A DNA stretch of 53,844 nt from Actinomycetota bacterium (GCA_035463715.1 DATHSY010000073.1:1-53844); one strand, 5' to 3'; shown: positions 14,797 through 42,211, counted from the first letter of the stretch. Notes: generated by a model not told the origin, from the letters alone. Made by a program: numbers and translations.

Positions 14797-14817
14797 CGGC
14801 CCAGCCTATCGGCGCGT

Positions 14818-16755: not shown

Positions 16756-16791
16756 CCGCGGACGGTAGCACCGCCCGCGGACACGGCTATG

Positions 16792-19121: not shown

Positions 19122-19147
19122 GCTGGCCTCCTCTCGCCGCTCCGACC

Positions 19148-26355: not shown

Positions 26356-26979
26356 TCAGTGGTCCTGCCGTCCGACCACGAACCAGATCGCGTGGACGGG
26401 GGCGTCGCCCTTGTTGAACAGCCGGTGCGGGATCGTCGAATCGAACGCGATCGAGTCGCCCGGGTTGAGCTCGTGCTCGTCGAACCCGATCTGGATCCCG
26501 AGCGTGCCGCTGATCACGTAGCCGTACTCGCGACCGTGGTGGCGCATCAACGACCGGTCGGGCGTCGACGCGCCTCCGACGCCGTAGGTCGCGAGCAGGA
26601 AGTCGATCCCGTCCTCGCGCTCGGCGGTCAGCTCCTCCCAACGGACGCCGGAGTCGAGGTCGATCGCCGCCCTGGTGTCCGGGTGCACCACGGGTGAGCC
26701 GTCGGAGCCCGTGTCCGATGCCGACGCGAGGGGTTCATCGTCGTCGCCACCCCTGATCACCCGGTCGATCGACACGCCGAGCTCGGTGACGATCGAGTAC
26801 AACGTGCCGACGGACGGCCTGGATTGACCGCTCTCGAGCTGCGAGATCAGGCTCGCGGACAGCCCGATCCGGCGCGCGAGCTCCCTCTGGCTGATGCCGG
26901 ACCGGACACGCTCCTCGCGCAGGCGCGCGCCGATCCCGTCGAGCGCCTCCGGGTCGCCCTGCGCCGACTCGCGTCTCAC
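26356..26979 (-). CDS. XRE-family HTH regulator with C-terminal cupin sensor domain (PuuR-like architecture)
   Basis: HTH_3 segment LREERVRSGISQRELARRIGLSASLISQLESGQSRPS and a C-terminal cupin (HHGREYGYVISG...PHRLFN). The GTG start overlaps the SDR stop (GTGA). Confidence 0.85.
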   Translation of the reverse strand: MRRESAQGDPEALDGIGARLREERVRSGISQRELARRIGLSASLISQLESGQSRPSVGTLYSIVTELGVSIDRVIRGGDDDEPLASASDTGSDGSPVVHPDTRAAIDLDSGVRWEELTAEREDGIDFLLATYGVGGASTPDRSLMRHHGREYGYVISGTLGIQIGFDEHELNPGDSIAFDSTIPHRLFNKGDAPVHAIWFVVGRQDH

Positions 26980-27668
26980 ACCAGGATCCAGCCGCCGTCG
27001 ACGTACAGGTTCACGCCGTTCACGGCGCGGTTCTCGAGGAGGAACACCGTCGCGTCGACGACGTCGGCCATCGTCGTGAGGCGCCCTGTCGGCGTCCGTG
27101 CGATCACCGCGTCCAGCGGCTTGCCGGACCAGAACGGGCTGTCGCCGACGATGCCGGGATGGATCGCGTTGACCCGGATCGGCGCGAGCTCGATCGCGAG
27201 CGTCCGGATGAGGCTGCTGACGCCGCCGTTGACCGTGGTCACCGTCGTCGATCCGGGATACGGGCGATCCTTCGCGCGACCGCCGTAGAGCACCACCGAC
27301 GACTCCTCGGACAGCCGGTCGAGCAAGGCATGGATCGTCGCCGGGTAGCCGACGAGCTTCATCGTGGTCAGGGCGACGGCCTTGTCGACGTCGTACTCGC
27401 GAACCGAGTTGTTGTCCCGGGCGATCGCCGCGAGGACGAGGCGCGACACCGGTCCGACGTCGGTGAGCGCGTCGGCGATCGTCTCCGGCCGGCCCAGGTC
27501 GAAGCCCAGACCGACGACGTCCCGACCGATCTCGGCCGCGACGGCGGTCGCTCGGTCGTGGTCGCGGCCCGTCACGATCACCTGCGCGCCGAGCTTGTCG
27601 TAGTGGACCGCGAGCTCACGCCCGATCCCGGCCGTGCCTCCGACGATCAGGACCGACCCCTCAGGCAT
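26976..27668 (-). CDS. short-chain dehydrogenase/reductase (SDR)
   Basis: Lies within ORF 26976..28433. ATG at 27666-27668. Cofactor motif VGGTAGIGRE. ...NAIHPGIV... 230 aa. Confidence 0.8.
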   Translation of the reverse strand: MPEGSVLIVGGTAGIGRELAVHYDKLGAQVIVTGRDHDRATAVAAEIGRDVVGLGFDLGRPETIADALTDVGPVSRLVLAAIARDNNSVREYDVDKAVALTTMKLVGYPATIHALLDRLSEESSVVLYGGRAKDRPYPGSTTVTTVNGGVSSLIRTLAIELAPIRVNAIHPGIVGDSPFWSGKPLDAVIARTPTGRLTTMADVVDATVFLLENRAVNGVNLYVDGGWILV

Positions 27669-27695
27669 CAGCGACCCAACCCCCTCGCTCGGCGA

Positions 27696-27814
27696 CCGCA
27701 GCGACACTACTCGACGAGGGCCGCGGTGTATAGCGTCGCTGAGCGGCCAGACGCTCGCCCGGAACGGCCGGTGTCTAGCCAAGGTCCCGGCATCTGTGTA
27801 GTGTCGCTGAACGG
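27696..27814. promoter_or_regulatory. divergent control region with three copies of a TAG(T/C)GTCGCTG motif
   Basis: CAGCGACACTAC (27699-27710) is the exact reverse complement of GTAGTGTCGCTG (27798-27809). A third copy, TAGCGTCGCTG, lies at 27731-27741. Each copy contains a TANNNT -10-like hexamer. Confidence 0.5.
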
Positions 27815-28710
27815 TGTTGGAGGGGACGCCTACCACGGTTGCCGTCGTCGGCACCGGCCGCATGGGCAGCGCGATGGCCGGGACGATCGGCCGAGCCGGC
27901 TTCGGGCTGGTGCTCTGGAACCGCGAGCCCTCGAAGTCGGAGCGCCTCGCCGCCGACCTGGGCGCGAGCATCGCGGCCTCGCCCGCCGAGGCCGCGTCGA
28001 AGGCCGACATGGTCCTGTCGAGCCTCGCCGACGACGCTGCCGTCGAGCACGTGTACATGGGCCCCGACGGCGTCGTGGAGGGCATCCCGCCGGGTGTCGT
28101 CGCCGTCGACACCAGCACCATCGATCCCCGCACGGTCGAGTCGGTCGGCGGTGCGGTCGAGGCAGCCGGCGCGAGCTTCCTCGACTGCCCCGTCTCGGGC
28201 AGCGTGAGCGTCGTCGAGGCGGGCGCGCTCACGATCATGGCGGGCGGCGAGGCGAGCGTGATCGATCGCGTTCGTCCCGTGCTGGACGCGATGGCATCGC
28301 GCGTCGTGCACATCGGCGGCCGCGGCGCGGGGTCGGCGATGAAGCTCGCCGTGAACAACCTCGTGCATGGGCTCAACGTCGCCCTCTCGGAGGCGATCGT
28401 CCTGGCCGAACGCGCCGGCGTCCCACGGACCACGGCGTACGAGGTCTTCGCTAACGGTGCCGGTGGCGCGCCGTTCGTGAACTACAAACGCGAGTCGTTC
28501 GAGCATCCCGAGACGGCGCCCGTGGCCTTCAGCCTGGACCTGGTCGCGAAGGACTACGAGCTGATCCTCGGGCTCGGCGGGCGGGTCGGGGTGCCGATGG
28601 AGCAGGCGGCCGCGTCGCAGGAGATCGTCCGCCGCGCGATCGCGAACGGCTACGGCGACCGCGACCTGAGCGCGATCGCCGTGTTCCTGCGGGGAGGCGA
28701 CGTCGGATGA
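27814..28710 (+). CDS. NAD(P)-dependent 3-hydroxyisobutyrate/tartronate-semialdehyde reductase-family oxidoreductase
   Basis: Rossmann VAVVGTGRMGSAMA and the family core ...DCPVSGSV..., ...GRGAGSAMKLAVN... The GTG at 27814 (or TTG at 27817) has no RBS, so the transcript may be leaderless. Confidence 0.8.
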   Translation: MLEGTPTTVAVVGTGRMGSAMAGTIGRAGFGLVLWNREPSKSERLAADLGASIAASPAEAASKADMVLSSLADDAAVEHVYMGPDGVVEGIPPGVVAVDTSTIDPRTVESVGGAVEAAGASFLDCPVSGSVSVVEAGALTIMAGGEASVIDRVRPVLDAMASRVVHIGGRGAGSAMKLAVNNLVHGLNVALSEAIVLAERAGVPRTTAYEVFANGAGGAPFVNYKRESFEHPETAPVAFSLDLVAKDYELILGLGGRVGVPMEQAAASQEIVRRAIANGYGDRDLSAIAVFLRGGDVG

Positions 28711-29645
28711 CGCACATCGTGAAGCTGCACGCCGACCTCGACCTGCGGACGCCGCCCGAGTTCGAGGGTCGGTCCCGGGGATACGCGGGGGACGCGGTCG
28801 TCGACGAGGGCGGCGGGTCGGTCCAGATGGGGTTCCGGATCGCCCGGCTCGAGCCGGGCGGGCGGGTCGACGCCCACGTGCACTCGTTCGAGGAGTCGAT
28901 CTACGTGATCGACGGCAGCCTGACGGTGGACACGACGGAGGGGTCGTTCGAACTGACGGCCGGCGACTACGGGCTGCTGCCGGTCGGCATGACGCACGCG
29001 TTCCGCAACCCGTCGGACGAAGTCGTGGGGCTTGCCGAGATGAGGGCGCCGCTGCCGCGGGAGCGGTTCGGCTTCGACACGCAGTTCCCCGGACCGCTCG
29101 AGACGGGGGCGGTCGCCCGCCGGATCGACGTCCGCGATCCACGGAACCGGAATTTCGGGCACATCGACGCCGGGTCGATGGATCCCGCGCTGCAGACGCA
29201 GGACCGGCTCGCCGTCAGCGCCAGCATGCGGACCGCGCTCCTCGTCTACAGCGGGATCACCGTGAAGATGATGGTCGACTCGGATCTCGGCGCCGACCTG
29301 TCGACGATGTTCATGGTCCAGTACGAGCCGGGCGGGTTCGCCGGACCGCACGATCATCCGCTCGAGGAGACCTATCTGATCCTCGACGGTGAGGTCGAGG
29401 GGGTGTTCGACGGCAGGACCTACCCCCTGGGACCCGGCGACGTCGCGTGGGCGGGCGTGGGCTGCGTCCACGAGTTCCGCAACGAGGCCCCCGGGCGAGT
29501 GCGGTGGCTCGAGACGCAGGCGCCCCAGCCGCCGCCTCGGCATTCGTACCGCTTCGCACGTGACTGGAGCTACCTCGAGCAGGCGCTGGGACGAGAGGCG
29601 CAGGGGACGTTGGCCCCGGACGGACAAGGAGCACGCCATGGATGA
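28707..29645 (+). CDS. bicupin protein with two intact His/Glu metal motifs (dioxygenase, decarboxylase or aminohydrolase type unknown)
   Basis: ATGA overlap with the upstream gene. Cupin 1: AHVHSFEESIYVIDG...PVGMTHAFRN. Cupin 2: GPHDHPLEETYLILDG...GVGCVHEFRN. Confidence 0.8.
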   Translation: MTHIVKLHADLDLRTPPEFEGRSRGYAGDAVVDEGGGSVQMGFRIARLEPGGRVDAHVHSFEESIYVIDGSLTVDTTEGSFELTAGDYGLLPVGMTHAFRNPSDEVVGLAEMRAPLPRERFGFDTQFPGPLETGAVARRIDVRDPRNRNFGHIDAGSMDPALQTQDRLAVSASMRTALLVYSGITVKMMVDSDLGADLSTMFMVQYEPGGFAGPHDHPLEETYLILDGEVEGVFDGRTYPLGPGDVAWAGVGCVHEFRNEAPGRVRWLETQAPQPPPRHSYRFARDWSYLEQALGREAQGTLAPDGQGARHG

Positions 29646-30891
29646 GTTCCCGGTAGCGACGAGCCCGGCCCCCGGGGTCATGGGCGTCGACTGGGAGAAC
29701 CGGGTCGACTTCGAGCGGCTGCGTCAGTACCGGCTCGGCCGCGTGCGCAGGATGCTGGCCGAGTTCGACCTCGGCGCCGTGCTGTTATTCGAGACGTCGA
29801 ACATCCGGTACGCGACCGCGACGCAGATCGGCTACTGGGCGTTCAACAAGGGGGAACGCTGGGCGCTGATCACGCGGGAGGGACGGCCGCGCGTCTGGGA
29901 CTTCGGGTCGGCCGCGAAGGCGCACCGGCTCCAGCTGCCGCACCTGTACGACACGCGGAACTCGATCGGCGGCAACACCGGGCTGCAGGGCGCCATCTCA
30001 CCCGAGACGGGCCTGCACGCGCGCGCCGTGCGCGAGATCCAGGCCGCGCTCGAGGAGGACGGCGTCGGCGGGGAACGGCTGGGCGTCGACCTCGCCGAGA
30101 CGGCGGTGTTCCTCGCGCTGCAAGAGGCGGGCGTCACCGTGGTCGACGGCCAACAGGCGATGATGCGCGCGAGAGAGATCAAGAGCCCAGACGAGATCGT
30201 CCTGTTGACGCAGGCGTGTGCGATGGTCGACGGCGTCTACCAGGACATCTTCGAGATGCTGAAGCCCGGAGTCCGCGAGTCGGACGTGGTCGGAATGGCG
30301 CATGCGCGCCTGTTCGGGATGGGATCGGAGTTCGTCGAGGCGATCAACTCGATCGCCGGCGAGCGCTGCAGCCCGCATCCGCACGTCTTCAGCGACCGGA
30401 TCATCCGGCCGGGCGACCAGGCCTACTTCGACATCATCCACGTCTTCAACGGCTACCGAACGTGCTACTACCGCACGTTCGTCGTCGGGCGCGCGACGCA
30501 GGCGCAGCGCGACGCGTTCAAGCAGTCACGCGAGTGGATGGACGCCGCGATCGACGTCGTCCGCCCAGGCGCGACGACCGACCAGATCGCGAAGGTCTGG
30601 CCGAGGGCAGAGGAGTTCGGCTTCCAGGACGAGATGGACGCGTTCGGGCTGCAGTTCGGCCACGGCGTCGGCGTCGGCCTGCACGAGCGGCCGATCGTCA
30701 GCCGGCTGAACTCGCTCGAGACGCCCGTAGAGATCCAGGAGGGGATGCTGTTCGCCCTCGAGACGTACGCGCCTGCCGCGGACGGACGGTCGGCCGCCCG
30801 GATCGAGGAAGAGGTGGTCGTCACGGCCTACGGCTGCAAGGTCATCACGCTGTTCCCGTGCGAGGAGCTGATGGTGGCCAATGCCTACTGA
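29638..30891 (+). CDS. M24-family hydrolase (creatinase / Xaa-Pro / DoeA-DddP-like pita-bread fold)
   Basis: ATG at 29638 follows AAGGAG, with an 8-nt overlap on the upstream gene. FGHGVGVGLHERP, FALETYA and ARIEEEVVVT are M24 motifs. 417 aa. Confidence 0.8.
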   Translation: MDEFPVATSPAPGVMGVDWENRVDFERLRQYRLGRVRRMLAEFDLGAVLLFETSNIRYATATQIGYWAFNKGERWALITREGRPRVWDFGSAAKAHRLQLPHLYDTRNSIGGNTGLQGAISPETGLHARAVREIQAALEEDGVGGERLGVDLAETAVFLALQEAGVTVVDGQQAMMRAREIKSPDEIVLLTQACAMVDGVYQDIFEMLKPGVRESDVVGMAHARLFGMGSEFVEAINSIAGERCSPHPHVFSDRIIRPGDQAYFDIIHVFNGYRTCYYRTFVVGRATQAQRDAFKQSREWMDAAIDVVRPGATTDQIAKVWPRAEEFGFQDEMDAFGLQFGHGVGVGLHERPIVSRLNSLETPVEIQEGMLFALETYAPAADGRSAARIEEEVVVTAYGCKVITLFPCEELMVANAY

Positions 30892-31942
30892 CCCACGGTA
30901 CGACTACGCGCTCCGCGAACCGCGGCTGCCGCCGCCCGTCGACCACTCGCTCGCGGAGGCACCGATCGACCTCGACGTCCGGATCGAGATGTACCGGACA
31001 CTGACCCGGATCCGCGCGTTCGGCAAGCGGGCGCACGACCTGTTCCTGCAGAACCTCGTCAAGGGAACCACGCACCTCTCGCTCGGGATGGAGGCCGTCG
31101 CGGCCGGCTTCGGCGCGGCGATGCAGCCGCACGACTACTCGTTCGCGACCTACCGCGGGCACGGGCACTCGCTCGCGCGAGGGATGGACCCGGGCGCCGC
31201 GATGGCCGAGCTGCTCGGCCGGGAGAACGGGATCCTCGGCGGCAAGGGCGGGTCGATGCACCTGACCGACACGGGCAAGGGGATGATGGGGTCGTACGCC
31301 ATCATCGGCGCGCACCTGTGCATCGCCAACGGAGCCGCGTGGTCGGCGCAGATGCGCGGGACCGATCAGGTGGCGGTCGCGTTCTTCGGCGACGGAACGA
31401 CAAACATCGGCGCGTTCCACGAGGCGCTCAACTTCGCGGTCGTCTGGAACCTGCCGGTCGTCTTCGTCGGCGAGAACAACCTATACATGGAGTACACGCC
31501 GATCGACGTCGTGACCTCGATCGACCCGCCGGTGGCCGGTCGCGCCCCGGCGTACGGGCTGCCGCAGATCCTGGTCGACGGCAACGATCCCGACGCCGTG
31601 TACCTCGTGGCGCGCGAGGCGCTGGACAAGGCGCGCTCGGGCGGCGGACCGTCGCTGATCGAGGCGGTGACGTACCGCTCCGGAGGGCACTCGCGTGCCG
31701 ACCCCGGCAAGTACCGGCCCGCCGAGGAGGTCGGCGCGTGGGCCGAGCGTGACCCCGTACCGATGTACCGCGCACGCCTGATCTCGATCGGGGTCGATGA
31801 GCAGCGTCTGGAAGCGATCCAGGACGAGCTCGACGAGTCGATCGACTCGGCCACCCACGTCGCGATGATGGGCGCCGAGCCGGGCGAGGACGCACTCCTG
31901 TCGCAGGTCTACGCGGACGGAGGTTCCCGGTGGCGGAACTGA
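30881..31942 (+). CDS. thiamine-diphosphate-dependent 2-oxoacid/acetoin dehydrogenase E1 alpha subunit
   Basis: TPP motif region FFGDGTTNIGAFHEALNFAVVWNLPVVFVGENNLY, plus YRGHGHS. ATG at 30881, with an 11-nt overlap. Confidence 0.88.
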   Translation: MPTDPRYDYALREPRLPPPVDHSLAEAPIDLDVRIEMYRTLTRIRAFGKRAHDLFLQNLVKGTTHLSLGMEAVAAGFGAAMQPHDYSFATYRGHGHSLARGMDPGAAMAELLGRENGILGGKGGSMHLTDTGKGMMGSYAIIGAHLCIANGAAWSAQMRGTDQVAVAFFGDGTTNIGAFHEALNFAVVWNLPVVFVGENNLYMEYTPIDVVTSIDPPVAGRAPAYGLPQILVDGNDPDAVYLVAREALDKARSGGGPSLIEAVTYRSGGHSRADPGKYRPAEEVGAWAERDPVPMYRARLISIGVDEQRLEAIQDELDESIDSATHVAMMGAEPGEDALLSQVYADGGSRWRN

Positions 31943-32919
31943 CCTACCGCGACGCGATCGCGTACGGGATCGCGCAGGAGATGCGGCGGGAGCCGAGCCT
32001 GGTGATGCTCGGCGAGGACATCGGACCGGCGGGCGGCGTGTTCAAGACCACCGTCGGCCTGATCGACGAGTTCGGGCCCGAACGGGTCCGGGACACCCCG
32101 ATCTCGGAGCAGGCGATCCTCGGCGCCGCGATGGGCGCGGCGATGACGGGGATCCCGGTGATCGCCGAGGTCATGTTCTCCGACTTCCTCGCGGTCTGTT
32201 GGGACATCGTCGCGAACCAGATCGCGAAGAGCCGCTACATGACGAACGGGCAGGTGAGCTTCCCACTCGTGATCCGGACCGCGAACGGCGGCGGCGTCCG
32301 GTTCGGCGCGCAGCACAGCCAGAGCGTCGAGAACTGGGCGATGATGATCCCGGGCCTCAAGGTCGTCGCCCCCTCGACGCCCGCGGACGTGGTCGGCCTG
32401 ATGGCGGCGGCGATCCGCGATCCCGATCCCGTCGTCTTCTTCGAGCACAAGGGCCTGATGGGGACCAAGGGCGAGATCCCCGACGGCGAGATCGTCGACG
32501 AGCTCGGCACCGCTAAGGTCGTTCGCGAGGGCACCGACGTCACGATCGCGGCCCTCGCACTGATGGTGCCGCGAGCGCTCGAGGCGGCGACGCGGCTCGA
32601 GCGCGACGGGGTCTCCGCCGAGGTGATCGACGTCCGCTCGCTCGTGCCGCTCGACACCCGCGCGCTGCTCGCCTCGGTGGAGAAGACGGGCCGATTCTGC
32701 ACGGTCGAGGAGAACCCGCGGCTGTGCGGATGGGGCGCCGAGCTCGTGTCGATCTTGTCCGAGGAGGCTTTCTGGAACCTCGACGGACCGAGCATCCGGA
32801 TCACGACGCCGCACATCCCGTTGCCGGCGGCGGCGTCGCTCGAGGACCTCGCGATGCCCTCGGCCGACCGGATCTACGAGACGGTGCACAAGTCGCTCGA
32901 CGCCGGGAGCCGCGCGTGA
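31930..32919 (+). CDS. 2-oxoacid/acetoin dehydrogenase E1 beta subunit (transketolase-like)
   Basis: LTYRDAIAYGIAQEMRR...GEDIG..GGVFKTT.GL...FGPERV.DTPISE is the canonical E1-beta N-terminus. GTG at 31930, with a 13-nt overlap. Confidence 0.88.
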   Translation: MAELTYRDAIAYGIAQEMRREPSLVMLGEDIGPAGGVFKTTVGLIDEFGPERVRDTPISEQAILGAAMGAAMTGIPVIAEVMFSDFLAVCWDIVANQIAKSRYMTNGQVSFPLVIRTANGGGVRFGAQHSQSVENWAMMIPGLKVVAPSTPADVVGLMAAAIRDPDPVVFFEHKGLMGTKGEIPDGEIVDELGTAKVVREGTDVTIAALALMVPRALEAATRLERDGVSAEVIDVRSLVPLDTRALLASVEKTGRFCTVEENPRLCGWGAELVSILSEEAFWNLDGPSIRITTPHIPLPAAASLEDLAMPSADRIYETVHKSLDAGSRA

Positions 32920-34187
32920 CGACCGGGACCCTGCTCCGCGGCGGGTGCATCCTCACCCTCGGGACGAAGACCCAGAACCTCAAGCGGGGTGACGTCCTGA
33001 TCGAGGACGGCCGGATCGCCGAGGTCGGGACGTCGGTCCGCGGCCGCGACGCCGAGGTCGTGGACGCGACGGACGCGATCGTGATGCCGGGGTTCGTGGA
33101 CACGCACCGTCACGCGTGGACGTCGTTGTTCCGCAACGCCGGCGACATCGCCGAGGTGTCGCCCGAGGTGCTCGGCGAGCACTACCGGCCAGGGGACGTC
33201 TACGCGGCCACGCTGATCGGGCTCCTTGGCGCGATCGAAGCCGGCATCACGACCGTCGTGGACGTTCTCGATCTCCCGCTCCGCGACGGCTTCGCGGAGG
33301 CGGCGCTGCAGGCGCACGCCGATTCCGGCGTCCGGACCGTGTTCGCGTTCGCGGCCCGAGAGGCAGCCGGCGACATGGTCGATCGCTTGTCCGGCGCGGC
33401 CGGGCCGGGGACGACCTTCGCGCTGGTCTCGGACGGTTTCGGCGACGGATGGACCGGCGCACGCGATCGCGGGCTGAGGGTCTTCGTGCACGCGCGGCCG
33501 ACCTTGTCGGTCCGCGGCGATGTTGCGCGGGCGGCATCGGAGGGCCTGCTCTCGGGCGAGGTCACGCTCGTTCATCACACCGCCCTCGACGATTCGGACC
33601 TCGATGCGATCGCGGGGTCGGGCGCCTGTGTCTCCCTGACGCCGTCGAGCGAGATGGCCACGGGGTTCGGCTCGCCACCGATCCAGGAGCTGATCGACCG
33701 AGGGATCAAACCGGGGCTCGGGATCGATCGGGAAGGGATGGCGCCAGGCGACATGTTCGCCCAGATGCGCCAGACGATCTCGCTCCAGCACGCGACCGTG
33801 TTCGACCGCAAGCTTGCGGGCAAGGCGGGGCTCCCCCGGCTGATGACGACCCGCGACGTGATCCGGTTCGCGACCTCTGAGGGGGCACGCGTCGCAGGGG
33901 TGCGGGAGGTGACCGGATCGCTCGAGCCCGGGCTGCAGGCAGACATCATCGTGCTCCGGACAGACCGCCCGAACGTATGGCCGATCAACGACCCGATCGG
34001 TGCCGTCGTCTGGGGGATGGACACGTCGAACATCGACCACGTCTTCGTCGGCGGCCGCCCGGTGATGCGCAGCGGCGTGCTCGCGGCCGACGTTGCCCGC
34101 GCGCGCTCGCTGGCGACGGGCGCACGCGGACACGTGACGGCCGCGGCGGGGATCGTCGCCCGAGCCGTCACGGGAGCCACGAGGTGA
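32916..34187 (+). CDS. amidohydrolase-superfamily enzyme A (TIM-barrel metallohydrolase/deaminase type)
   Basis: The GTG at 32916 overlaps the E1-beta stop (GTGA). HxH motif in IVMPGFVDTHRHAW, and a late Asp in GLGIDREGMAPGD. Paralog of the C-terminal domain of 38182..40635. Confidence 0.8.
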   Translation: MTTGTLLRGGCILTLGTKTQNLKRGDVLIEDGRIAEVGTSVRGRDAEVVDATDAIVMPGFVDTHRHAWTSLFRNAGDIAEVSPEVLGEHYRPGDVYAATLIGLLGAIEAGITTVVDVLDLPLRDGFAEAALQAHADSGVRTVFAFAAREAAGDMVDRLSGAAGPGTTFALVSDGFGDGWTGARDRGLRVFVHARPTLSVRGDVARAASEGLLSGEVTLVHHTALDDSDLDAIAGSGACVSLTPSSEMATGFGSPPIQELIDRGIKPGLGIDREGMAPGDMFAQMRQTISLQHATVFDRKLAGKAGLPRLMTTRDVIRFATSEGARVAGVREVTGSLEPGLQADIIVLRTDRPNVWPINDPIGAVVWGMDTSNIDHVFVGGRPVMRSGVLAADVARARSLATGARGHVTAAAGIVARAVTGATR

Positions 34188-35248
34188 ACTCCCCTCGGCC
34201 TGCGTCGTCCGCGCTCACGGCCTTCGTCGTCGCCTCGCGCTACATGCCCGTCTACATCGCCCTCGTGCTGCTCGTCGTCGTCGCGTCGATCTGGGCGCCC
34301 GCGACGCTGCGAGGGCCGTCCTTGCGGGCGATCGCCCCCGTGGGAACGCTCCTCGCGATCGCGGCCCTCGGTCAGATGCTCGTCGTGATGACGGGCGGCA
34401 TCGATCTCAGCGTCCCCGGAAGCCTGACCCTCGCGGCCGTGATCACGGTCGGCGTGGGACACGGGGCCGACGATCGCGTCGGTCCCGCGATCGTCGTCGC
34501 GCTCGCGGCGGTGGCGCTCGTCGGCCTCGTGAACGGCATCCTGATCGGTGGCATCGGCCTGAACCCCTTGATCGTGACACTCGCCGTCGGACAGATCGCG
34601 AGCGGCATCGCGTTCCGCTACTACACGAGCGTCGCGATCCAGACGCCCGTGCCGAAGGGGCTCTCCGGATGGACCTCGACCCGTCTGCTCGGCGTCCCGC
34701 GCACGTTCTGGCTGGGCGTCGCGGTCACGGTGGTGCTGATCGTCCTGTTCCGCTTCACGACGGTCGGGCGCCGGTTCCAGGTCGTCGGCGCCAACCCGAC
34801 GGCGTCGTGGATCGCCGGGCTCCGGGTCAACCTCAATCGCGTCTCCGCCTACGTCGTCGCGGCCATGCTGTACGGCGGCACCGGCATCCTGATCGCCTCG
34901 TACCTGCGCACGATCAGCATCACGATCGGCGCGCCGTACCTCCTCGGCCCGATCGCCGCGGTGGTGATCGGGGGGGCCTCGCTGACCGGCGGACTCGCGA
35001 GCCCGCTGTCGACGTGGGCCGCGGCCTTCTTCCTGGCCGGCCTCAACCAGATGATGCGCGTCCTCGGTCTGCCGACCGCGCTGCAGTTCGTCGTGTTCGG
35101 CGTGGTGATCGTCGGGGGGATGTTGATCTCGGGAGACCGGATCATCAGGGCGGTCGAGCACGTGCTTCGGGAAGGCAAGCGACCGGAACCACGAGCCGGC
35201 CCCGTGGTCGCCGGCATCGGACCCGGTGAGGACGGGGGGGTGATCTAA
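34184..35248 (+). CDS. CUT2-type ABC transporter permease A
   Basis: The GTG at 34184 overlaps the upstream stop (GTGA). Multi-TM protein with TGGIDLSVPGSLTLAAV and VIGGASLTGGLASP motifs. 354 aa. Confidence 0.85.
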   Translation: MNSPRPASSALTAFVVASRYMPVYIALVLLVVVASIWAPATLRGPSLRAIAPVGTLLAIAALGQMLVVMTGGIDLSVPGSLTLAAVITVGVGHGADDRVGPAIVVALAAVALVGLVNGILIGGIGLNPLIVTLAVGQIASGIAFRYYTSVAIQTPVPKGLSGWTSTRLLGVPRTFWLGVAVTVVLIVLFRFTTVGRRFQVVGANPTASWIAGLRVNLNRVSAYVVAAMLYGGTGILIASYLRTISITIGAPYLLGPIAAVVIGGASLTGGLASPLSTWAAAFFLAGLNQMMRVLGLPTALQFVVFGVVIVGGMLISGDRIIRAVEHVLREGKRPEPRAGPVVAGIGPGEDGGVI

Positions 35249-35309
35249 CGGGCTTCGAGGGATCGGCGAGCGATCTGCACGGATGACGGTCGACGTAGGG
35301 GAGGGGACG

Positions 35310-36593
35310 ATGCACCGGATCAGGTTCGTGGTCATCTTCGCGGTGTTCGCCTTGGTGGCGGCAGCGTGCGGTGGGGACGATGGCGACACCGGCGGGAACG
35401 GCGGTACGGACGGCGGGAACGCGACGACCGGGTCCGGGCCTCTCGCGGAGTACGGCGAGAGCACGGACGCGGATCCGGCGCTGATCGAGAAGGCGATGGG
35501 GCCGGTCGGGGAGGTTCCCGACATCGTGCTGGCCGCGATCGCTCGCGCGGATCAGGATCTCGACCAGGCCACGGTCGACAAGGCCCTGGAGTGCTGGGCG
35601 GCCACGCAGTGCGATACGGGCACCGGCGGCGACATCGTCATGGGGTACGCGGACGGCGGCGGCCTGAACGTCTGGCGTCAGGTGACGAGGATGGAGGCGA
35701 TCCTGCAGGCGCTCACGTATCCCGAGATCGGCAAGATGATGTTCCGCGACGCCAAGTGGGACCCCGATCCGGCGGTCGCCGCAGCCGACATCCGGTTCCT
35801 GATCCAGGCGGGTGTCGACTTCATCATCGGCTACCCGGACCAGGGCACGAACATCGCCGATGCGATCCTCGAGGTCCAGGCGGCCGGCATCCCCTACTCC
35901 ACGTACTCGGCCGGCTGGGTCGGCTTGCCAGGACAGGAGGGCGCGCTGGTTCCCGGCGAGGATTACCTGACCGTCGTCGGCGAGGACCTCTGCGCGCTGG
36001 GCGATAGCTTCGCCGATGTGATCAACGACGGCGTCCGATCGGGCAGCGTCGGCGTGATGGGCGGCACACCGGGCAACGCGTTGTCGCTCGGTTGGCAGCA
36101 GTGCTTCATGGACGCGGTGGACGACTCGGTCGACACACTCGGTCCCGCGGACACGTACTGGTCGAACGACGTCGCCCTCGAGGTCGTGAACGGGTGGCTC
36201 TCGACGAACCCGGACATCAAGGGGTACGCGTACGAGTACGCGGACGGCCTCAACACGGCGTTGCAGGCCTACGACGAGCTCGGCGTGCCGGTGCGCGATC
36301 TGACGGTCGCCCTGCGCACGGACGAGCAGACGCTGTTCTGCGACTGGGCCGAACGGGACGCGCCGAACTACGACATCTGGTACTCGGCCGGCGGCAACTT
36401 CCAGTCGCGTGTGGCGGTGACCGCTTCGATGATGTACTTGAAGGATGCCGACATCTCGGGTGAGATCGTCGTCCCGCACGTGATGCGTCAGGTCACGGAG
36501 GACGACTGCAACCCCGACCGCGTGACGCCGACGGTGTCGGGGACGTCGCTCGTGCCGGACGAGGTGCTGGCGCTGATGTATCCGAGCGGATGA
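35310..36593 (+). CDS. ABC transporter substrate-binding lipoprotein (unknown ligand)
   Basis: ATG at 35310 follows GGGGAGGGG. MHRIRFVVIFAVFALVAAACGG is a lipobox, followed by a Gly/Asp/Thr linker. 427 aa, unusually long for a CUT2 binding protein. Confidence 0.8.
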   Translation: MHRIRFVVIFAVFALVAAACGGDDGDTGGNGGTDGGNATTGSGPLAEYGESTDADPALIEKAMGPVGEVPDIVLAAIARADQDLDQATVDKALECWAATQCDTGTGGDIVMGYADGGGLNVWRQVTRMEAILQALTYPEIGKMMFRDAKWDPDPAVAAADIRFLIQAGVDFIIGYPDQGTNIADAILEVQAAGIPYSTYSAGWVGLPGQEGALVPGEDYLTVVGEDLCALGDSFADVINDGVRSGSVGVMGGTPGNALSLGWQQCFMDAVDDSVDTLGPADTYWSNDVALEVVNGWLSTNPDIKGYAYEYADGLNTALQAYDELGVPVRDLTVALRTDEQTLFCDWAERDAPNYDIWYSAGGNFQSRVAVTASMMYLKDADISGEIVVPHVMRQVTEDDCNPDRVTPTVSGTSLVPDEVLALMYPSG

Positions 36594-38185
36594 GCAGGAG
36601 CGACCCCGAGGAAGGGTCGGTAGGCGGAGAGGTCGTCCTCGAGCTGACCGGGGTGTCCCGTCAGTTCGGCGCGGTGCGCGCGCTGACCGACGTCAGCTTC
36701 GACTGCCGCGCCGGCGAGGTCCACGCCATCGTCGGCGAGAACGGCTCGGGCAAATCGACCCTCCTCGGGATCGCGAGCGGCTTCGTCGACCCCGATCGCG
36801 GCACGGTCACGATCGGCGGCAGGCGATTACGCCGGGATTCCCCGGCCGAGGCCAGGAAGCTGGGCCTGGCGATGGCGTACCAGGACACCTCGTTGATCCT
36901 GGCGCAGCCGGTGAAGAACAACCTCTACCTCGCCGCCCCGCCGGAGGAGCGACCGCCGTTCTGGCGCCGGAAGAAGTGGGCGCGGCGCGTCCTCGCCGGG
37001 TTCGACCTCGACATCGAGCTCTTCCCCGACATGCCGGCGGGGGCGTTGACGCTCGCGGACCGTCAGCTGTTCGAGGTCGCCAAGGCGCTGGTCACGGAAC
37101 CGCGCGTGCTCCTCCTCGACGAGCCGACCACCGCGCTCGGCCCGCACGAGGTCGAAGCGCTCCACCGCACGCTGTCAGCATGCCGCGATCGTGGCGTCGG
37201 CGTTGTGTACGTGAGCCACCGGCTCCCGGAGGTGCTCGAGGTCGCGGATCGCATCACGGTCCTGCGCGACGGCCGGAGCCAGGGGACGTTCGACGCGCGC
37301 GACGTCACGGAGCATCAGCTCGTCGACCTGATCGTCGGGCGCGCGTTCGAGGCGGCGTTCCCGCCTCCCGCGCCGGGTGAGGGCGAGCGACGCGACCGGC
37401 TCGTCGTGGACGGGCTCCAGGGGCAGGCGTTCGGACCCGTGACCTTCACGCTCGTGAGCGGCGAGATCGTCGGCGTCGCGGGTGCCGAGGGCAACGGCCA
37501 GCCGCAGCTGTTCGACTGCCTCGCCGGACGACAGCCGCCGCGCGCGGGGCGCGTCGCATGCGACGGCAGGGAGCTGATGCTGATCTCCACGCACGAGGCC
37601 GTCCGTGCCGGGATCATGCTCTTGCCCGGGGACCGGAGGCAGGAAGCGCTGATGCCCGTGCTCGGCGTGCGGGTCAACTCGACGATCCAGTCGCTCCGAC
37701 GGTTCGCGACGATGGGGTTCCTGCGGCGGAGGAGGGAGCGCCGGCGGGTGCGAGAGCTCGTCGAACGGCTCGAGATCAAGACTCCGTCGCTCGAGCAGCC
37801 CGTGGGGTTCCTGTCCGGCGGCAACCAGCAGAAGGTCGCGGTCTCCCGCACGTTCCTGCGCGAACCGGCGGTGATCCTCGCGTACGAGCCGACGCAAGGC
37901 GTCGACGTCGGTTCCCGGTTCGATATCTACGCCGCGCTCCGCTCGCGGACCGACACCGGGACGGCCATGCTCGTCAAGTCGAGCGATCCCCTCGAGCTGG
38001 CCGGTCTGTGCGACCGGGTCCTCGTGATGTCGCGGGGTCAGATCGTCGAGGAGATCCCGGGCGACGAGCTCGACGAGTTCCGGATCGTCGAGGCGATCGT
38101 GCGAGGCCCCGGGATGTCACGGGCGGGCCGCTCCCCACTCGGCGTCGCGATGCCGAAGGCTCCCACCCAGCGGAGGGACGTGTGA
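36590..38185 (+). CDS. ABC transporter ATP-binding protein, duplicated nucleotide-binding domains
   Basis: ATGA overlap with the upstream gene. NBD1 has GENGSGKST and LLLDEPTTAL. NBD2 has GAEGNGQPQL (degenerate Walker A), LSGGNQQK and ILAYEPTQGVD. Confidence 0.88.
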   Translation: MSRSDPEEGSVGGEVVLELTGVSRQFGAVRALTDVSFDCRAGEVHAIVGENGSGKSTLLGIASGFVDPDRGTVTIGGRRLRRDSPAEARKLGLAMAYQDTSLILAQPVKNNLYLAAPPEERPPFWRRKKWARRVLAGFDLDIELFPDMPAGALTLADRQLFEVAKALVTEPRVLLLDEPTTALGPHEVEALHRTLSACRDRGVGVVYVSHRLPEVLEVADRITVLRDGRSQGTFDARDVTEHQLVDLIVGRAFEAAFPPPAPGEGERRDRLVVDGLQGQAFGPVTFTLVSGEIVGVAGAEGNGQPQLFDCLAGRQPPRAGRVACDGRELMLISTHEAVRAGIMLLPGDRRQEALMPVLGVRVNSTIQSLRRFATMGFLRRRRERRRVRELVERLEIKTPSLEQPVGFLSGGNQQKVAVSRTFLREPAVILAYEPTQGVDVGSRFDIYAALRSRTDTGTAMLVKSSDPLELAGLCDRVLVMSRGQIVEEIPGDELDEFRIVEAIVRGPGMSRAGRSPLGVAMPKAPTQRRDV

Positions 38186-40635
38186 GCACGCGCGTCGACA
38201 CCGCACGGATCGCGGTCCGCAAGGTCCTCCGCGATGCGCGCGACAAGAACAAGTGGCGGAAGATCGTGCGGTTCCGGCTCTGGATGCCGGTCGTCCTCCA
38301 ACTGCTCCTGATCGTCGGGGTCGCGTGGTACACGACGACGCGCTTCCCCGGCTTCGTCAACACCGCGAACGTCACGAACACGCTGATCCTGGCGGCACCG
38401 CTCGCGATGGTCGCGATCGGTCAGACCCATGCGCTGCTGATCGGAGGCCTCGACCTGTCGGTCGGTGCGATGGTGACGTTCGGCGTCGTCGTCGCCTCGT
38501 TCCTGATCGGGCCGGAGTCGACGTCGTCGCACGTCCTGTTGGGTGTGGGCGCGATCCTCGGGTGCGGCGTGGCGCTCGGCCTGGTCAACGCCGGCCTCGT
38601 CGTCGGCCTCAAGATCCCGTCGATCATCGCAACGCTCGCGACGCTCAGCATCCTGAACGGCATCTCGCTCACGCTCCGCGGGACGCCCGGCGGGATCATC
38701 GACCGCGACTTCACGTCGTTGCTCCGGACGAGCATCGGGCCGGTGCCCGTGATCTTCATCGTCGTCCTGCTCGCCGCCGGCGCGCTCGACTACTGGCTGC
38801 ATGCGACGGGCTCCGGCCTGCAGCTGCGGTCGACCGGGTTCGACGAGCAGTCGGCGAAGCGGAGCGGCGTTCGGACCAAGTGGGTCCGCGCGCGCGCCTT
38901 CGTGCTCTCCTCGGTGTTCGCCGCCGTCGGCGCGTTCTTCGTGATGACGCGCTCGGGCATCGGCAACGCGCAGATCGGCGACGCGTACGCGCTCAGCAGC
39001 ATCACGGCGGCGGTGCTGGGCGGTGCCGCCCTGTCGGGCGGGCGGGCGACGTTCCTCGGGGCGCTCGTCGCATCGGTCCTTCTCGCGCTCATCATCAGCG
39101 CACTGCCGTTCCTCGGGCTGGGCGCCGAGCACGGGCTCATCATCATCGGCATCCTCGTCCTCCTCGGGATCGTGCTGTTCCAGGTCGGGGACCTGAAGGA
39201 GCTGGTCAAGAGGAACTACAAGCGGGCGCGGCGGGTCGTGATCGGGAGCCGGCCGCCGAAGACGGCCACGATCCCGGATCTGTATCCGGAGGAGCCGAAC
39301 TTCGGTGTGGCACCCACCGGCAGGACGCTGATCAAGGGCGGAACGATCCTCAGCCTGGATCCGAGGGTGGGTAACTTCCTGACCGGAGATGTCCTGATCG
39401 ACGGCGACCGGATCATCGACGTTCGCCCGGGGCTGCAGGTCGACGGCGCGGATGTGATCGACGCTGGCGGGATGATCGTGATGCCGGGGTTCGTCGACAC
39501 GCACCGGCACATCTGGGAGGGCCTGCTTCGGAACATCGGGACGGACGTGCCGCTCGAGGGCCGCTCCAGCTACATCTCATACGTCCTTCACAAGCTCGCG
39601 CCGGCGTACCGGCCCGAGGACGCGTACCTCGGCAACCTGATCTCGGCGCTGGGCGCCATCGACGCCGGCATCACGACGCTGCTCGACTGGTCCCACATCC
39701 AGGGGTCTCCCGCACACACGGACGCCGTGATCCAGGCCCTGGAAGACTCGGGTCTGCGGGCGGTCTTCGCGTACGGGTTCCCATGGTGGGGCAAGTGGGA
39801 GGAGCGCCAGCCAAGCTGGTTCGTCCGGGCGGCGAGCGAGCATTTCTCGACGAGGGACCAGAAGCTGACGCTCGCGCTGGCCGCTCCCGGTCCGGAGTTC
39901 ACCGATTTCGAGGTCTCGCGCGACCACTGGAAGCTCGCGCGCGAGACCGGCGCGCGGATCACGACCCACGTCGGCGTCGGGACCTACGGCAAGGACGGCA
40001 AGGTCCAGGAGATGGGCGAGGCGGGACTGCTCGGGGCCGACACGACGTACATCCACTGCACGACGCTGAACGACACGGAGATCCAGATGATCGTCGACAC
40101 CGGCGGCACGGTGTCCCTCGCCTCGCCGGTCGAGATGATGATGGGTCACGGCATGCCGCCGATCCAGAAGTTCCTGGACCGGGGGCTGCGTCCGAGCCTG
40201 AGCGTCGACGTCGAGACGAACGTGCCGGGCGACATGTTCAATCAGATGCGCTCGGTGCTCGCGCTCCAGCGGGCGAACGCGACCGCGGAGGGCAAGGCTC
40301 CGCTGACGGCGTCGGAGGTCCTGGCCTGCGCGACGATCGACGGTGCGAAGGCGAACGGGCTCGAGGCGACGATCGGAACGCTGACGCCGGGCAAGCAGGC
40401 CGACGTCATCGTGCTGCGTACGGACCGCATCAACGTCACGCCGCTCAACGACCCCTCCACGGCGGTCGTCACCGGGATGGACACCGGCAACGTCGATACG
40501 GTCCTGATCGCCGGACGGGTGATGAAGCGTCACGGCGAGCTGCTCCACGTCGACTGGCCGGCCGTGAAGCGGATGGTCGCCGAGTCACGCGATCACGTGC
40601 TCGCCAGATCCGGCTTCAAGCCCCCATCGATCTGA
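38182..40635 (+). CDS. in-frame fusion of CUT2 ABC permease B (N-terminal ~340 aa) with amidohydrolase B (C-terminal ~440 aa)
   Basis: The GTG at 38182 overlaps the ATPase stop (GTGA), and the frame stays open for 817 aa. Permease motifs are LIGGLDLSVGAMVTF and VLGGAALSGGRATF. A linker ...KRNYKRARRVVIGSRPPKTATIPDLYPEEPNFG follows. The amidohydrolase part has IVMPGFVDTHRHIW, ITTHVGVG, TYIHCTTL and SLSVDVETNVPGD. Confidence 0.8.
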   Translation: MSTRVDTARIAVRKVLRDARDKNKWRKIVRFRLWMPVVLQLLLIVGVAWYTTTRFPGFVNTANVTNTLILAAPLAMVAIGQTHALLIGGLDLSVGAMVTFGVVVASFLIGPESTSSHVLLGVGAILGCGVALGLVNAGLVVGLKIPSIIATLATLSILNGISLTLRGTPGGIIDRDFTSLLRTSIGPVPVIFIVVLLAAGALDYWLHATGSGLQLRSTGFDEQSAKRSGVRTKWVRARAFVLSSVFAAVGAFFVMTRSGIGNAQIGDAYALSSITAAVLGGAALSGGRATFLGALVASVLLALIISALPFLGLGAEHGLIIIGILVLLGIVLFQVGDLKELVKRNYKRARRVVIGSRPPKTATIPDLYPEEPNFGVAPTGRTLIKGGTILSLDPRVGNFLTGDVLIDGDRIIDVRPGLQVDGADVIDAGGMIVMPGFVDTHRHIWEGLLRNIGTDVPLEGRSSYISYVLHKLAPAYRPEDAYLGNLISALGAIDAGITTLLDWSHIQGSPAHTDAVIQALEDSGLRAVFAYGFPWWGKWEERQPSWFVRAASEHFSTRDQKLTLALAAPGPEFTDFEVSRDHWKLARETGARITTHVGVGTYGKDGKVQEMGEAGLLGADTTYIHCTTLNDTEIQMIVDTGGTVSLASPVEMMMGHGMPPIQKFLDRGLRPSLSVDVETNVPGDMFNQMRSVLALQRANATAEGKAPLTASEVLACATIDGAKANGLEATIGTLTPGKQADVIVLRTDRINVTPLNDPSTAVVTGMDTGNVDTVLIAGRVMKRHGELLHVDWPAVKRMVAESRDHVLARSGFKPPSI

Positions 40636-40912
40636 TCGAACCACCTGCGACGGCCGGCAGCAGCGACACCGTGTCGCCCTCCTTGACCGGCGTCTCGAGC
40701 GAGCCGAGGTAGCGCACGTCCTCGTCGTTCACGTAGACGTTGATGAACCGGTGCAGCGCGCCCTCATCGGAGACGACGTTCTTCGTGATGCCCGGGTAGC
40801 GGGACTCGAGGTCCTTCAGGAGCTCGCGAAGCGTGGACCCGTCGGCGTCGACGACGGGCTCGCCGCCGGCATGCTTGCGCAGGATCTGGGGCAGCTTGAC
40901 CTTGACGGACAT
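40616..40912 (-). CDS. cysO: MoaD/ThiS-family sulfur carrier protein (CysO-like) with a 7-aa extension beyond the GG terminus
   Basis: ATG at 40910-40912 follows AAGGAGAG. MSVKVKLPQILRKHAGG...HRFINVYVNDEDVRYLG...GDTVSLLPAVAGG closely resembles mycobacterial CysO and is then followed by SIRSMGA-stop. The last 20 nt overlap the convergent fusion gene. Confidence 0.8.
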   Translation of the reverse strand: MSVKVKLPQILRKHAGGEPVVDADGSTLRELLKDLESRYPGITKNVVSDEGALHRFINVYVNDEDVRYLGSLETPVKEGDTVSLLPAVAGGSIRSMGA

Positions 40913-40929
40913 CTCGGCTCGTCTCTCCT

Positions 40930-42194: not shown

Positions 42195-42211
42195 ATGCAG
42201 GTGCAAAACTC

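Follow-up and report, generated by a model that had tools for sequence, protein, structure and literature searches.

The window analysed here, a stretch of 53,844 nucleotides from an Actinomycetota bacterium (GCA_035463715.1 DATHSY010000073.1:1-53844), carries ten closely packed open reading frames (ORFs) on the plus strand at 27814-40635, the last of which joins a permease of an ATP-binding cassette (ABC) importer to an amidohydrolase in a single polypeptide. This permease::amidohydrolase fusion is the most unusual feature of the operon. It was overlooked in an earlier description of the same DNA (hereafter the original prediction), where the second amidohydrolase was counted apart from the importer; that enzyme is the C-terminal part of ORF 38182-40635. 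We consider it fairly probable that the operon serves regulated catabolism or nitrogen scavenging in uncultured soil Actinomycetota, with a hydrolase tethered to the transporter at its centre.

ORF 38182-40635 is one frame of 817 amino acids with no internal stop, in which a permease is followed by a linker of about 40 residues and an amidohydrolase. The transmembrane domain of the permease, PERM2, occupies residues 1 to ~336-340 (38182-39190; BPD_transp_2 at residues 64-328), the linker, again without a stop codon in frame, lies at 39191-39321 (KRNYKRARR..GSRPPK..IPDLYPEEPNFG), and the amidohydrolase domain, AH2, makes up residues 381-817 (39322-40635; Pfam amidohydrolase at 381-811, NCBIfam NF006056). 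Among 5.8 billion proteins, the fused protein is represented by more than 120 clusters at 90% identity, which are 79%–100% identical and contain both Pfam domains in every case; nearly all measure 811-841 amino acids, and two shorter ones are partial. The clusters were drawn from JGI, ENA, NCBI, and Logan assemblies, and those with a taxonomic label are metagenome-assembled genomes (MAGs) of Actinomycetota/Acidimicrobiia. When one genome was scanned for each GTDB species, 384 relatives of the fusion were found, and the best 80 of these all cover residues 1-817 and all come from MAGs, mostly of soil surveys. An exhaustive search of 1.84 billion representatives at 50% identity found the full-length fusion in only one representative, the other matches being fragments or free amidohydrolases of ~450 amino acids at 37%–56% identity. 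The fusion is limited to one tight clade, yet stable over hundreds of species.

Such a frame might also arise as an assembly or sequencing artefact, or by recent loss of a stop codon between a permease and an amidohydrolase that are normally separate. The window does contain a Shine-Dalgarno-like GGAGGAG 12 nt before a GTG in the reading frame (39307), at the very position expected for the start of a separate amidohydrolase gene. However, this pair is present only in this window, whereas none of the more than 120 independent clusters of the protein and none of the 83 related loci, which stem from many studies and assemblers, has a break in the frame, and the linker peptide is itself conserved (KRNYKRARR..GSRPPK..LP.LYP.G.DF in 83/83 loci). 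An internal translation start for AH2 was rejected on the same comparison, neither the GGAGGAG nor the GTG being conserved across the 83 loci. Because the linker is unbroken in these loci and the internal GGAGGAG/GTG is not conserved, we regard the protein as a true fusion and not as two coupled genes; an artefact is hardly credible and can be considered effectively refuted.

The N-terminus of PERM2 holds 11 Lys or Arg residues within its first 30 positions, and the segment past the last transmembrane helix is likewise basic. Positive-inside analysis of these segments implies that both termini of PERM2 face inward, which would place AH2 in the cytoplasm. The basic N-terminal segment (38182-38280) includes DKNKWRKI, which is among the best-conserved peptides of the 817-residue protein. 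A precedent for a module carried covalently on the transmembrane domain of an ABC importer is provided by OpuA and GlnPQ, to which substrate-binding domains are fused. In those systems, however, the fused module is an extracytoplasmic receptor, whereas that of the window is predicted to be a cytoplasmic catalytic domain following the last transmembrane helix. To our knowledge, a catalytic domain joined to a transmembrane subunit has not been described for any binding-protein-dependent ABC importer, and a search of the full-text literature found no described ABC importer with a fused amidohydrolase.

The remaining transport genes precede the fusion. PERM1 is a CUT2-type permease of 354 amino acids (34184-35248, plus strand; Pfam BPD_transp_2), neither an enzyme nor an amidohydrolase, and is followed by a substrate-binding lipoprotein of 427 amino acids (35310-36593, plus strand; lipobox VAAAC; Pfam Peripla_BP_4 at residues 151-337 only) and a CUT2 ATPase of 531 amino acids with tandem nucleotide-binding domains (36590-38185, plus strand; two Pfam ABC_tran domains). 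As judged from their families, the lipoprotein receptor, the two different CUT2 permeases, and the tandem ATPase would make up one ABC importer. Both permeases match PF02653 and the binding protein matches PF13407. The AraG, XylG, and RbsA models align end to end with the ATPase at 346-391 bits, all under their cut-offs, and the AraH/RbsC/LsrC-like NCBIfam matches of PERM1 also stay under theirs; no component of the importer reaches the NCBIfam equivalog of a system with a known substrate, and the binding protein has no NCBIfam match. Its best sequence match in the PDB has E = 0.005. The AlphaFold2 (AF2) model of the binding protein (pLDDT 78) resembles RbsB-type proteins (TM ~0.8, 15%–19% identity) and consists of a ribose-binding-protein-like core with a disordered Gly/Asp/Thr linker and an extra N-terminal helical segment. 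The tandem ATPase of ~500-530 amino acids is shared with CUT2 importers that use two permeases (LsrACDB and YtfQRT-YjfF) and also with RbsABC and AraFGH, as are BPD_transp_2 permeases and a class-I receptor of ribose-binding-protein fold. The window system departs from these sugar importers in a receptor that is less than 20% identical to solved binding proteins and has the extra N-terminal segment, and in an enzyme domain of 440 amino acids on one permease, which is found in none of the named systems.

AH2 has a free paralogue in the operon, AH1 (32916-34187, plus strand; 423 amino acids; Pfam Amidohydro_1), which is 43% identical to the fused domain in pairwise alignment. By profile score, AH2 belongs to PRK08204, a branch within the ATZ/TRZ-like group: it reaches 511.8 bits with NF006056 (PRK08204; cut-off 391), a model that NCBI names 'hypothetical protein', while AH1 scores 336.3 bits and remains under the cut-off. 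The closest solved relatives of both (3HPA, 7WW2, AtzA, TrzN, and MTA/SAH deaminase) match at 67-94 bits only. In the window, both proteins keep the HxH of beta-1, the His of beta-5 and of beta-6, and the Asp of beta-8, and the HRH, HVGVG, IHCTT, and DVETN motifs of AH2 are invariant in 83 orthologues. The ATZ/TRZ-like enzymes of COG0402 (TrzN, AtzA, AtzB, and the deaminases of 8-oxoguanine, isoxanthopterin, guanine, and MTA/SAH) have this signature of metal ligands in the (beta/alpha)8 amidohydrolase fold in common with AH1 and AH2 and provide their best PDB and NCBIfam matches. AH1 and AH2 differ from them in their low similarity, in a D-x-E motif at beta-8 of both, and in the replacement of the HxxE glutamate, the aligned residues being HVGV in AH2 and HARP in AH1 against HLAE in 3HPA and 7WW2. 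This glutamate is also missing from free homologues and from homologues with a twin-arginine translocation (Tat) signal, which read HVGVG, HAGLG, or HIGVG.

The active site of AH1 has not been kept uniformly. Of 56 AH1 orthologues, 13 have another residue in place of the beta-8 Asp, 5 in place of the beta-6 His, and 3 in place of the beta-5 His; about 7 of the Asp-replaced sequences are ambiguous, with an Asp one residue later, and at least 5 are unambiguous losses. The losses are scattered over several independent lineages and all classes of gene arrangement described below, and were seen in loci L002, L010, L017, L023, L031, L035, L041, L044, L049, L067, L069, L076, and others. The active site thus appears eroded in about a quarter of orthologues, with the metal ligands intact in the window. 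That AH1 is kept even in lineages where catalysis is hardly conceivable suggests that it partners AH2 structurally, and it may be drifting toward a pseudoenzyme.

Outside the operon, free relatives of these amidohydrolases (42%–56% identity) adjoin genes for intradiol, extradiol, or VOC dioxygenases, maleylacetate reductase, YciI, and FAH-family proteins in Cupriavidus, Rhodococcus, Sinorhizobium, and a metagenomic contig that also encodes a CUT2 binding protein. One AH2 homologue of 512 amino acids (P0130, ~50% identity) begins with an extension of ~55-60 amino acids that holds a clear Tat-type signal, SRRRLL...ASA, and a further free homologue (P0128, 48% identical) has an N-terminal extension of ~55 amino acids in which a Tat signal is less clear. 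Both extensions fit an amidohydrolase step that is the first reaction on an environmental substrate, and lineages with these proteins may carry out the same first step outside the cytoplasm.

Gene order was compared by tblastn of thirteen window modules against the 83 related loci, and arrangements were counted in the 41 loci with at least 4 kb of upstream and at least 8 kb of downstream sequence. AH1, PERM1, the binding protein, the ATPase, and PERM2::AH2 form an invariant core wherever the sequence suffices, and AH1 is always its leading gene. Around this core, the order of the window, with the genes for the bicupin, the M24 enzyme, and E1 alpha and beta upstream, is found in 12 of the 41 loci. 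A downstream M24-E1 alpha/beta block, in some cases with a third amidohydrolase (AH3), is followed by genes for the bicupin, a short-chain dehydrogenase/reductase (SDR), and a reductase in 11 loci. The M24-E1-AH3 genes diverge from the core in 5 loci, the modules are split to both sides of it in 3, and the core stands alone in 10, the accessory modules being absent from its flanks. M24 and E1 alpha/beta therefore adjoin the core in 31/41 loci and in four arrangements. By these comparisons, the locus is modular, with a fixed uptake-hydrolysis core and two mobile accessory modules, namely M24-E1 alpha-E1 beta (in some loci with AH3) and bicupin-SDR-reductase. The ten-gene unit of the original prediction survives as a gene set that is kept through at least four rearrangements, but it is not indivisible. 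Functional linkage is better argued from this conservation, since tight coupling of genes is commonplace at 70% G+C. ORF clustering across the 83 loci revealed no other recurrent genes, including those for a kinase, aldolase, dehydratase, or sugar isomerase.

One accessory module can also be found apart from the importer. A transporter-free locus (L094, 8001-13292) holds genes for the SDR, bicupin, reductase, and regulator, with proteins 44%–58% identical to those of the window, and these adjoin the gene for the amidohydrolase P0128. The carriers of the cluster are Actinomycetota, mostly Acidimicrobiia, from soil MAGs. In four MAGs labelled as Acidobacteriota (L041, L044, L045, and L080), the cluster is 75% identical to the Actinomycetota versions, and these copies could be due to mis-binning or horizontal transfer.

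Within the first accessory module, the M24 pita-bread enzyme (29638-30891, plus strand; 417 amino acids; Pfam Peptidase_M24 and Creatinase_N) has a DddP-like architecture and is the best-conserved protein of the cluster (74%–94% identity in the related loci). It misses the standard D, D, H, E, E ligand set, of which it keeps four of five: aligned to 1PV9 and 4S01, its metal ligands read D-C-H-E-E, with the Cys in GYRTCYYRTF at the second Asp position, as had been proposed originally. This Cys is invariant in 43/43 homologues, including 59%-identical proteins from Streptomyces and Phaeobacter. The creatinase-type N-terminal and pita-bread domains are shared with DddP, DoeA/EutD, prolidases, and creatinase, and the alignment to DddP structures is full-length. 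In contrast to these enzymes, the window protein possesses the invariant Cys and a constant linkage to E1 alpha/beta, and it scores 111.3 bits against a cut-off of 600 with the DddP model NF043017 and 76 bits against 613 with DoeA.

The partner genes encode the thiamine diphosphate (ThDP)-dependent E1 alpha (30881-31942, plus strand; 353 amino acids; Pfam E1_dh) and E1 beta (31930-32919, plus strand; 329 amino acids; Pfam Transket_pyr and Transketolase_C). E1 alpha contains the conserved ThDP motif GDG-X26-NN and a conserved YRSGGHSRADP loop, and scores 310 bits with the pyruvate dehydrogenase (PDH) equivalog TIGR03182 (cut-off 394); E1 beta exceeds the cut-off of subfamily NF006667 (343 against 321 bits). 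A heterodimeric ThDP E1 with the GDG..NN motif and a YRxxGHSxxDP loop is also found in AcoABCL and PdhABCD. The window E1 differs in its lack of a cognate E2, lipoyl carrier, and E3, besides the score of E1 alpha under the PDH cut-off. No E2, lipoyl protein, E3, or aldehyde dehydrogenase was found in the window or in the 83 related loci (those of Phaeobacter and Streptomyces, including LpdA, were the tblastn queries for E2, lipoyl protein, and E3), so that the absence of E2 and E3 first noted for the window extends to its relatives. It is possible that this E1 could serve a lipoyl E2 encoded elsewhere.

Homologues of the Cys-containing M24 enzyme (59% identity) also occur on plasmids of Streptomyces, Phaeobacter, Tritonibacter, and Marinovum. 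Their neighbours in these cultured organisms include E1 alpha/beta (37%–42% identical to those of the window), an oxidoreductase like 3-hydroxyisobutyrate dehydrogenase (HIBADH), E2, a succinate-semialdehyde-type aldehyde dehydrogenase, an acetoin-reductase-like SDR, and, in Phaeobacter, LpdA. Such modules lie at 11003-18452 of a plasmid region of Streptomyces sp. YIM 121038 (L084) and at 9341-20309 of one from Phaeobacter gallaeciensis pGal_E78 (L085), the Phaeobacter module also adjoining a CUT2 sugar transporter and a ThuA protein. Linkage between the Cys-M24 enzyme and E1 thus spans phyla, and nothing relevant on a linkage of M24 with E1 or acetoin dehydrogenase, or on PRK08204, was found in the literature.

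The second accessory module comprises the bicupin (28707-29645, plus strand; 312 amino acids; two Pfam Cupin_2 stretches), the reductase, and the divergently encoded SDR. Both 3-His-1-Glu metal sites of the bicupin, H57, H59, E63, and H97 and H215, H217, E221, and H255, show no substitution in 30 orthologues that are at least 74% identical, in line with the intact HxH..E..H..N sites reported before. Foldseek comparison of its AF2 model (pLDDT 77) returned YxaG quercetinase, OxdC, YlbA/ureidoglycine aminohydrolase, and salicylate dioxygenase at TM ~0.6-0.78; these structural neighbours are generic only, and the score with TIGR03214 (ureidoglycine aminohydrolase) is 36 bits against a cut-off of 200. 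A bicupin homologue is also encoded on plasmid pR1CP1 of Rhodococcus opacus 1CP, in a region broken by insertion sequence (IS) elements, with genes for E1 alpha/beta and E2, succinate-semialdehyde dehydrogenase, and LpdA nearby. The first gene of the operon encodes an NAD(P) oxidoreductase of the HIBADH/tartronate-semialdehyde-reductase family (27814-28710, plus strand; 298 amino acids; Pfam NAD_binding_2 and NAD_binding_11). The likeness to these reductases that was originally claimed holds for the superfamily architecture but not at the level of equivalogs, as the best NCBIfam scores are 153-173 bits against cut-offs of 292-397 (tartronate-semialdehyde reductase, 173 against 341; 3-hydroxyisobutyrate dehydrogenase, 165 against 292). 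The SDR (26976-27668, minus strand; 230 amino acids, ATG start at 27668; Pfam adh_short_C2 and adh_short) has orthologues of 57%–77% identity that accompany the bicupin and reductase in other loci. The canonical Ser...YxxxK spacing is not evident in it or in its orthologues, GG.AK.RPYPGS.T.T..N.G being conserved instead, and its best NCBIfam match is PRK07041 (134 bits, cut-off 257).

A regulator of 207 amino acids with an XRE-type helix-turn-helix (HTH) and a cupin domain (26356-26979, minus strand; Pfam HTH_3 and Cupin_2) is encoded together with the SDR, and the two minus-strand genes are divergent from the operon as originally described. Its comparison with PuuR is valid for the HTH and cupin architecture only, the score with NF007408 (PuuR) being 60.7 bits against a cut-off of 211. 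In most related loci, a homologue of the regulator is encoded next to the cluster, though at no fixed position. A repeat search of the 145-bp divergent promoter/operator region (27669-27813) detected four copies of GTAGYGTCGCTGA (the 13-nt motif GTAGTGTCnCTGA), which are located at 27668-27680 and 27699-27710 on the minus strand and at 27730-27742 and 27798-27810 on the plus strand. With up to 2 mismatches, GTAGYGTCGCTGA is present in 46 of the 83 related loci (e.g., L006, L027, L039, L054, and L069), and of its 62 hits, 49 fall in the 250 bp before the leading gene of a core or accessory operon, whatever the identity of that gene; about 25 hits would be expected by chance across the 1.45 Mb. 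The last copy holds TAGTGT and ends 3 nt ahead of the GTG start of the first gene, which has no Shine-Dalgarno sequence. TAGTGT resembles an actinobacterial -10 hexamer, and a leaderless transcript is plausible. GTAGTGTCnCTGA may be the operator bound by the XRE-cupin regulator, a -10 element of such a transcript, or both. A scan for sigma-70 promoters and terminators gave no informative signal at this high G+C content. Elsewhere in the window, an inverted CTAGCGTCGCTGCGCGC pair at 16794-16819, where a UvrD-like helicase ORF meets a BNR-repeat ORF, has a AGCGTCGCTG core in common with this motif, which may be a coincidence.

If these parts act together, the imported compound is probably hydrolysed by AH2 during its entry into the cell. 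Solute leaving the translocation path would meet the tethered AH2 and, once hydrolysed, would be trapped or channelled; the hydrolysis would most likely free ammonia, an amine, or another leaving group. AH1 would be the partner of AH2, either catalytic, as is possible in the window, or merely structural where its active site has decayed. The product would be handed to the two accessory modules, which recombine freely around the core and would finish the degradation with liberation of nitrogen. In one of them, the bicupin may cleave a ring or isomerise the product, after which the SDR and the HIBADH-type reductase may reduce a semialdehyde. In the other, the Cys-M24 enzyme may perform a further C-N cleavage, and E1 alpha/beta may then decarboxylate a 2-oxo acid or cleave an acyloin, working with housekeeping E2/E3 or as a lyase. 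The XRE-cupin regulator bound to GTAGTGTCnCTGA sites would co-regulate both modules. The coupling of transport and hydrolysis, the pairing of AH1 and AH2, the order of the reactions, the role of an E2-less E1, and the type of substrate are what we infer from these genes. Solute modification that is spatially coupled to entry and prevents back-flux is known from the phosphotransferase system (PTS) and from FadL/FadD-type vectorial acylation. The window proteins have no homology to these systems; in the version suggested here, the modifying step would be hydrolysis, and the hydrolytic domain would be attached to a primary transporter driven by ATP.

The substrate probably contains nitrogen and is most likely a small polar compound that is common in soil, either an amino- or amido-substituted heterocycle or polyol-like. 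As anticipated by the original prediction, the enzyme set matches no pathway that can be named: no enzyme of the cluster reaches an NCBIfam equivalog cut-off, the relatives in the PDB are distant, and no relevant paper or characterised pathway with this combination of enzymes was found in the full-text literature. Profile, structure, and neighbourhood searches likewise named no substrate, which had been described as not deducible from sequence. Candidate substrates supported by no test were allantoin and other ureides, pterins, triazines, creatinine, ectoine, pantothenate, guanidino acids, streptidine-type aminocyclitols, and alkylpyrazines. The proposal that an imported, probably nitrogen-containing amide or heterocycle is catabolised survives all the tests applied here, but its case for nitrogen is weakened by the missing HxxE glutamate and the aromatic neighbourhoods of the free homologues.

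Several observations speak against the proposed function or limit it. The 10 core-only loci among the 41 suggest that the lower pathway may be dispensable or encoded elsewhere. The pairing of AH1 with AH2 and the channelling are argued from architecture, and the absence of E2 and E3 from 83/83 loci makes any role of E1 a conjecture. AH1 and AH2 are devoid of the HxxE glutamate found in every characterised COG0402 deaminase, and without it their reaction could be another hydrolytic substitution or a ring opening; the amidohydrolase superfamily also holds lactonases, isomerases, decarboxylases, and dehalogenases. The neighbourhoods of the free homologues indicate aromatic chemistry and give no obvious sign of a release of nitrogen. 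The binding-protein model shows a ribose-binding-protein fold only, and this sugar-type fold gives no specific clue to the ligand.

A carbohydrate or sugar-acid operon without nitrogen chemistry, in which the CUT2 system imports a sugar, cyclitol, or uronate, the amidohydrolases are lactonases or isomerases, the bicupin corresponds to KduI/IolB, the SDR to KduD, and the reductase to GarR, and E1 acts on pyruvate or an acyloin, would account for the sugar type of the transporter parts and of the binding-protein fold. It would also agree with the missing deaminase glutamate of AH1 and AH2, with a reductase that scores best against tartronate-semialdehyde, L-threonate, and sulfolactaldehyde reductases, and with the Phaeobacter relative of the M24-E1 module that lies beside a CUT2 sugar transporter, ThuA, and an acetoin-reductase-like SDR. 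However, a kinase, aldolase, dehydratase, or sugar isomerase recurs in none of the 83 loci, the bicupin has no KduI/IolB Pfam match and KduI is outside its 50 best structural matches, the characterised neighbours of the ATZ/TRZ-like subfamily of AH2 all displace nitrogen or chlorine substituents, and M24 enzymes cut C-N bonds, or C-S bonds in DddP. We therefore hold the carbohydrate explanation to be improbable, and less likely than catabolism around a transporter-tethered hydrolase.

The funnelling of a (hetero)aromatic compound is a specific version of this favoured explanation and no alternative to it. AH2 and AH1 (and AH3) would swap amino or halogen substituents for hydroxyl groups in the manner of triazine hydrolases, the bicupin would be a ring-cleaving dioxygenase, the M24 enzyme would hydrolyse the ring-fission amide, and E1 and the reductases would dispose of a 2-oxo acid and a semialdehyde. 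The closest solved structures are indeed triazine hydrolases, atrazine chlorohydrolase, and 8-oxoguanine/pterin-type deaminases; free homologues adjoin ring-cleavage dioxygenases in Cupriavidus, Rhodococcus, Sinorhizobium, and the metagenomic contig with a CUT2 binding protein; and as many as three amidohydrolase paralogues in one locus would be apt for a ring with several substituents. The best matches of the bicupin, whose 3-His-1-Glu sites are both intact, include those to quercetinase and salicylate 1,2-dioxygenase, but the non-oxygenases OxdC, YlbA/ureidoglycine aminohydrolase, and BacB match it equally well. Moreover, no oxygenase, hydroxylase, or electron-transfer component is present, the erosion of AH1 in many lineages argues against obligatory sequential deaminations, and a sugar-type binding protein would be unusual for aromatic ligands, so that we keep this version as a tentative one, on the doubtful side. 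A biosynthetic or resistance cluster is very unlikely. E2-less E1 alpha/beta pairs are known from secondary-metabolite clusters, and the ATZ/TRZ-like enzymes include xenobiotic hydrolases, which would fit a natural-product pathway or hydrolases that detoxify an antibiotic or herbicide. Nonetheless, the invariant core is a binding-protein-dependent importer, a synthase, carrier protein, or exporter is found in no locus, and the chromosomal context is conserved in hundreds of soil MAGs from unpolluted surveys.

The superfamily of each part of the locus is known, and there is nothing unusual in a catabolic operon that includes an ABC importer. What is not ordinary is the catalytic domain in an importer permease, the pair of Glu-less PRK08204 enzymes of which one is decaying, the Cys-ligand M24 subfamily tied to E1 across phyla, and an E1 that is consistently without E2/E3. 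It is conceivable, although we put it somewhat short of an even chance, that these genes specify a novel type of importer, in which the first catabolic enzyme is built into a transmembrane subunit, AH1 serves as a partner while drifting toward a pseudoenzyme, and hydrolytic, group-translocation-like uptake feeds a new pathway of Cys-M24, E2-less E1, and bicupin for an abundant soil compound, in lineages without cultured members. With an importer-enzyme fusion that is stable over hundreds of species, substrate channelling and metabolic trapping at a primary transporter could be studied in a natural example. Among the accessory loci of abundant uncultured soil Acidimicrobiia and related Actinomycetota, the cluster is one of the better conserved, and knowledge of its substrate would assign a niche function to these bacteria. 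The substrate would also give a first function to the Glu-less PRK08204 amidohydrolases, the Cys-ligand M24 enzymes, and the linked E1 alpha/beta. The occurrence of the Cys-M24-E1 module in cultivable Streptomyces and Phaeobacter renders it genetically tractable.

Reading of the sequence, which has a G+C content of ~70%, recovered every ORF and junction of the ten-gene plus-strand operon at the coordinates first given. These ten ORFs represent eleven functional modules, since the last one combines a permease and an amidohydrolase. Successive junctions overlap by 4, 8, 11, 13, 4, and 4 nt, followed by a gap of 61 nt and two further overlaps of 4 nt each. The gap (35249-35309), 5' of the binding-protein gene, is the only intergenic one of the operon, and it contains no predicted RNA structure (z = +0.95). 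GGAG-type Shine-Dalgarno sequences precede most starts, the first gene (GTG at 27814) being without one. Families were assigned by Pfam and NCBIfam profile scores against curated cut-offs, and these agree with the original family names of the reductase, bicupin, M24 enzyme, E1 alpha/beta, amidohydrolase, lipoprotein receptor, and CUT2 ATPase.

At the end of the operon, minus-strand genes for ThiS-like, ThiF/MoeB-like, and JAB (Mec-type) proteins (40616-42206) converge on the fusion gene, whose end is overlapped by the ThiS ORF for 20 nt, and a gene for a CysM-like pyridoxal phosphate (PLP) enzyme lies upstream of the operon (23936-24868, minus strand). Together, the ThiS/ThiF/JAB and CysM-like genes resemble a sulfur-carrier cysteine biosynthesis set, and the convergent ThiS, ThiF, and JAB genes are unrelated to the operon. 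A second, unrelated CUT2-type sugar transporter, which comprises a permease and a receptor domain of the standard Peripla_BP_4 type, is encoded in another part of the window (9220-12891, with 2631-3830 and 13702-14805). Genes for a xylose-isomerase-like TIM-barrel protein and a GFO/IDH/MocA oxidoreductase are nearby, and this region is probably an inositol or sugar utilisation locus.

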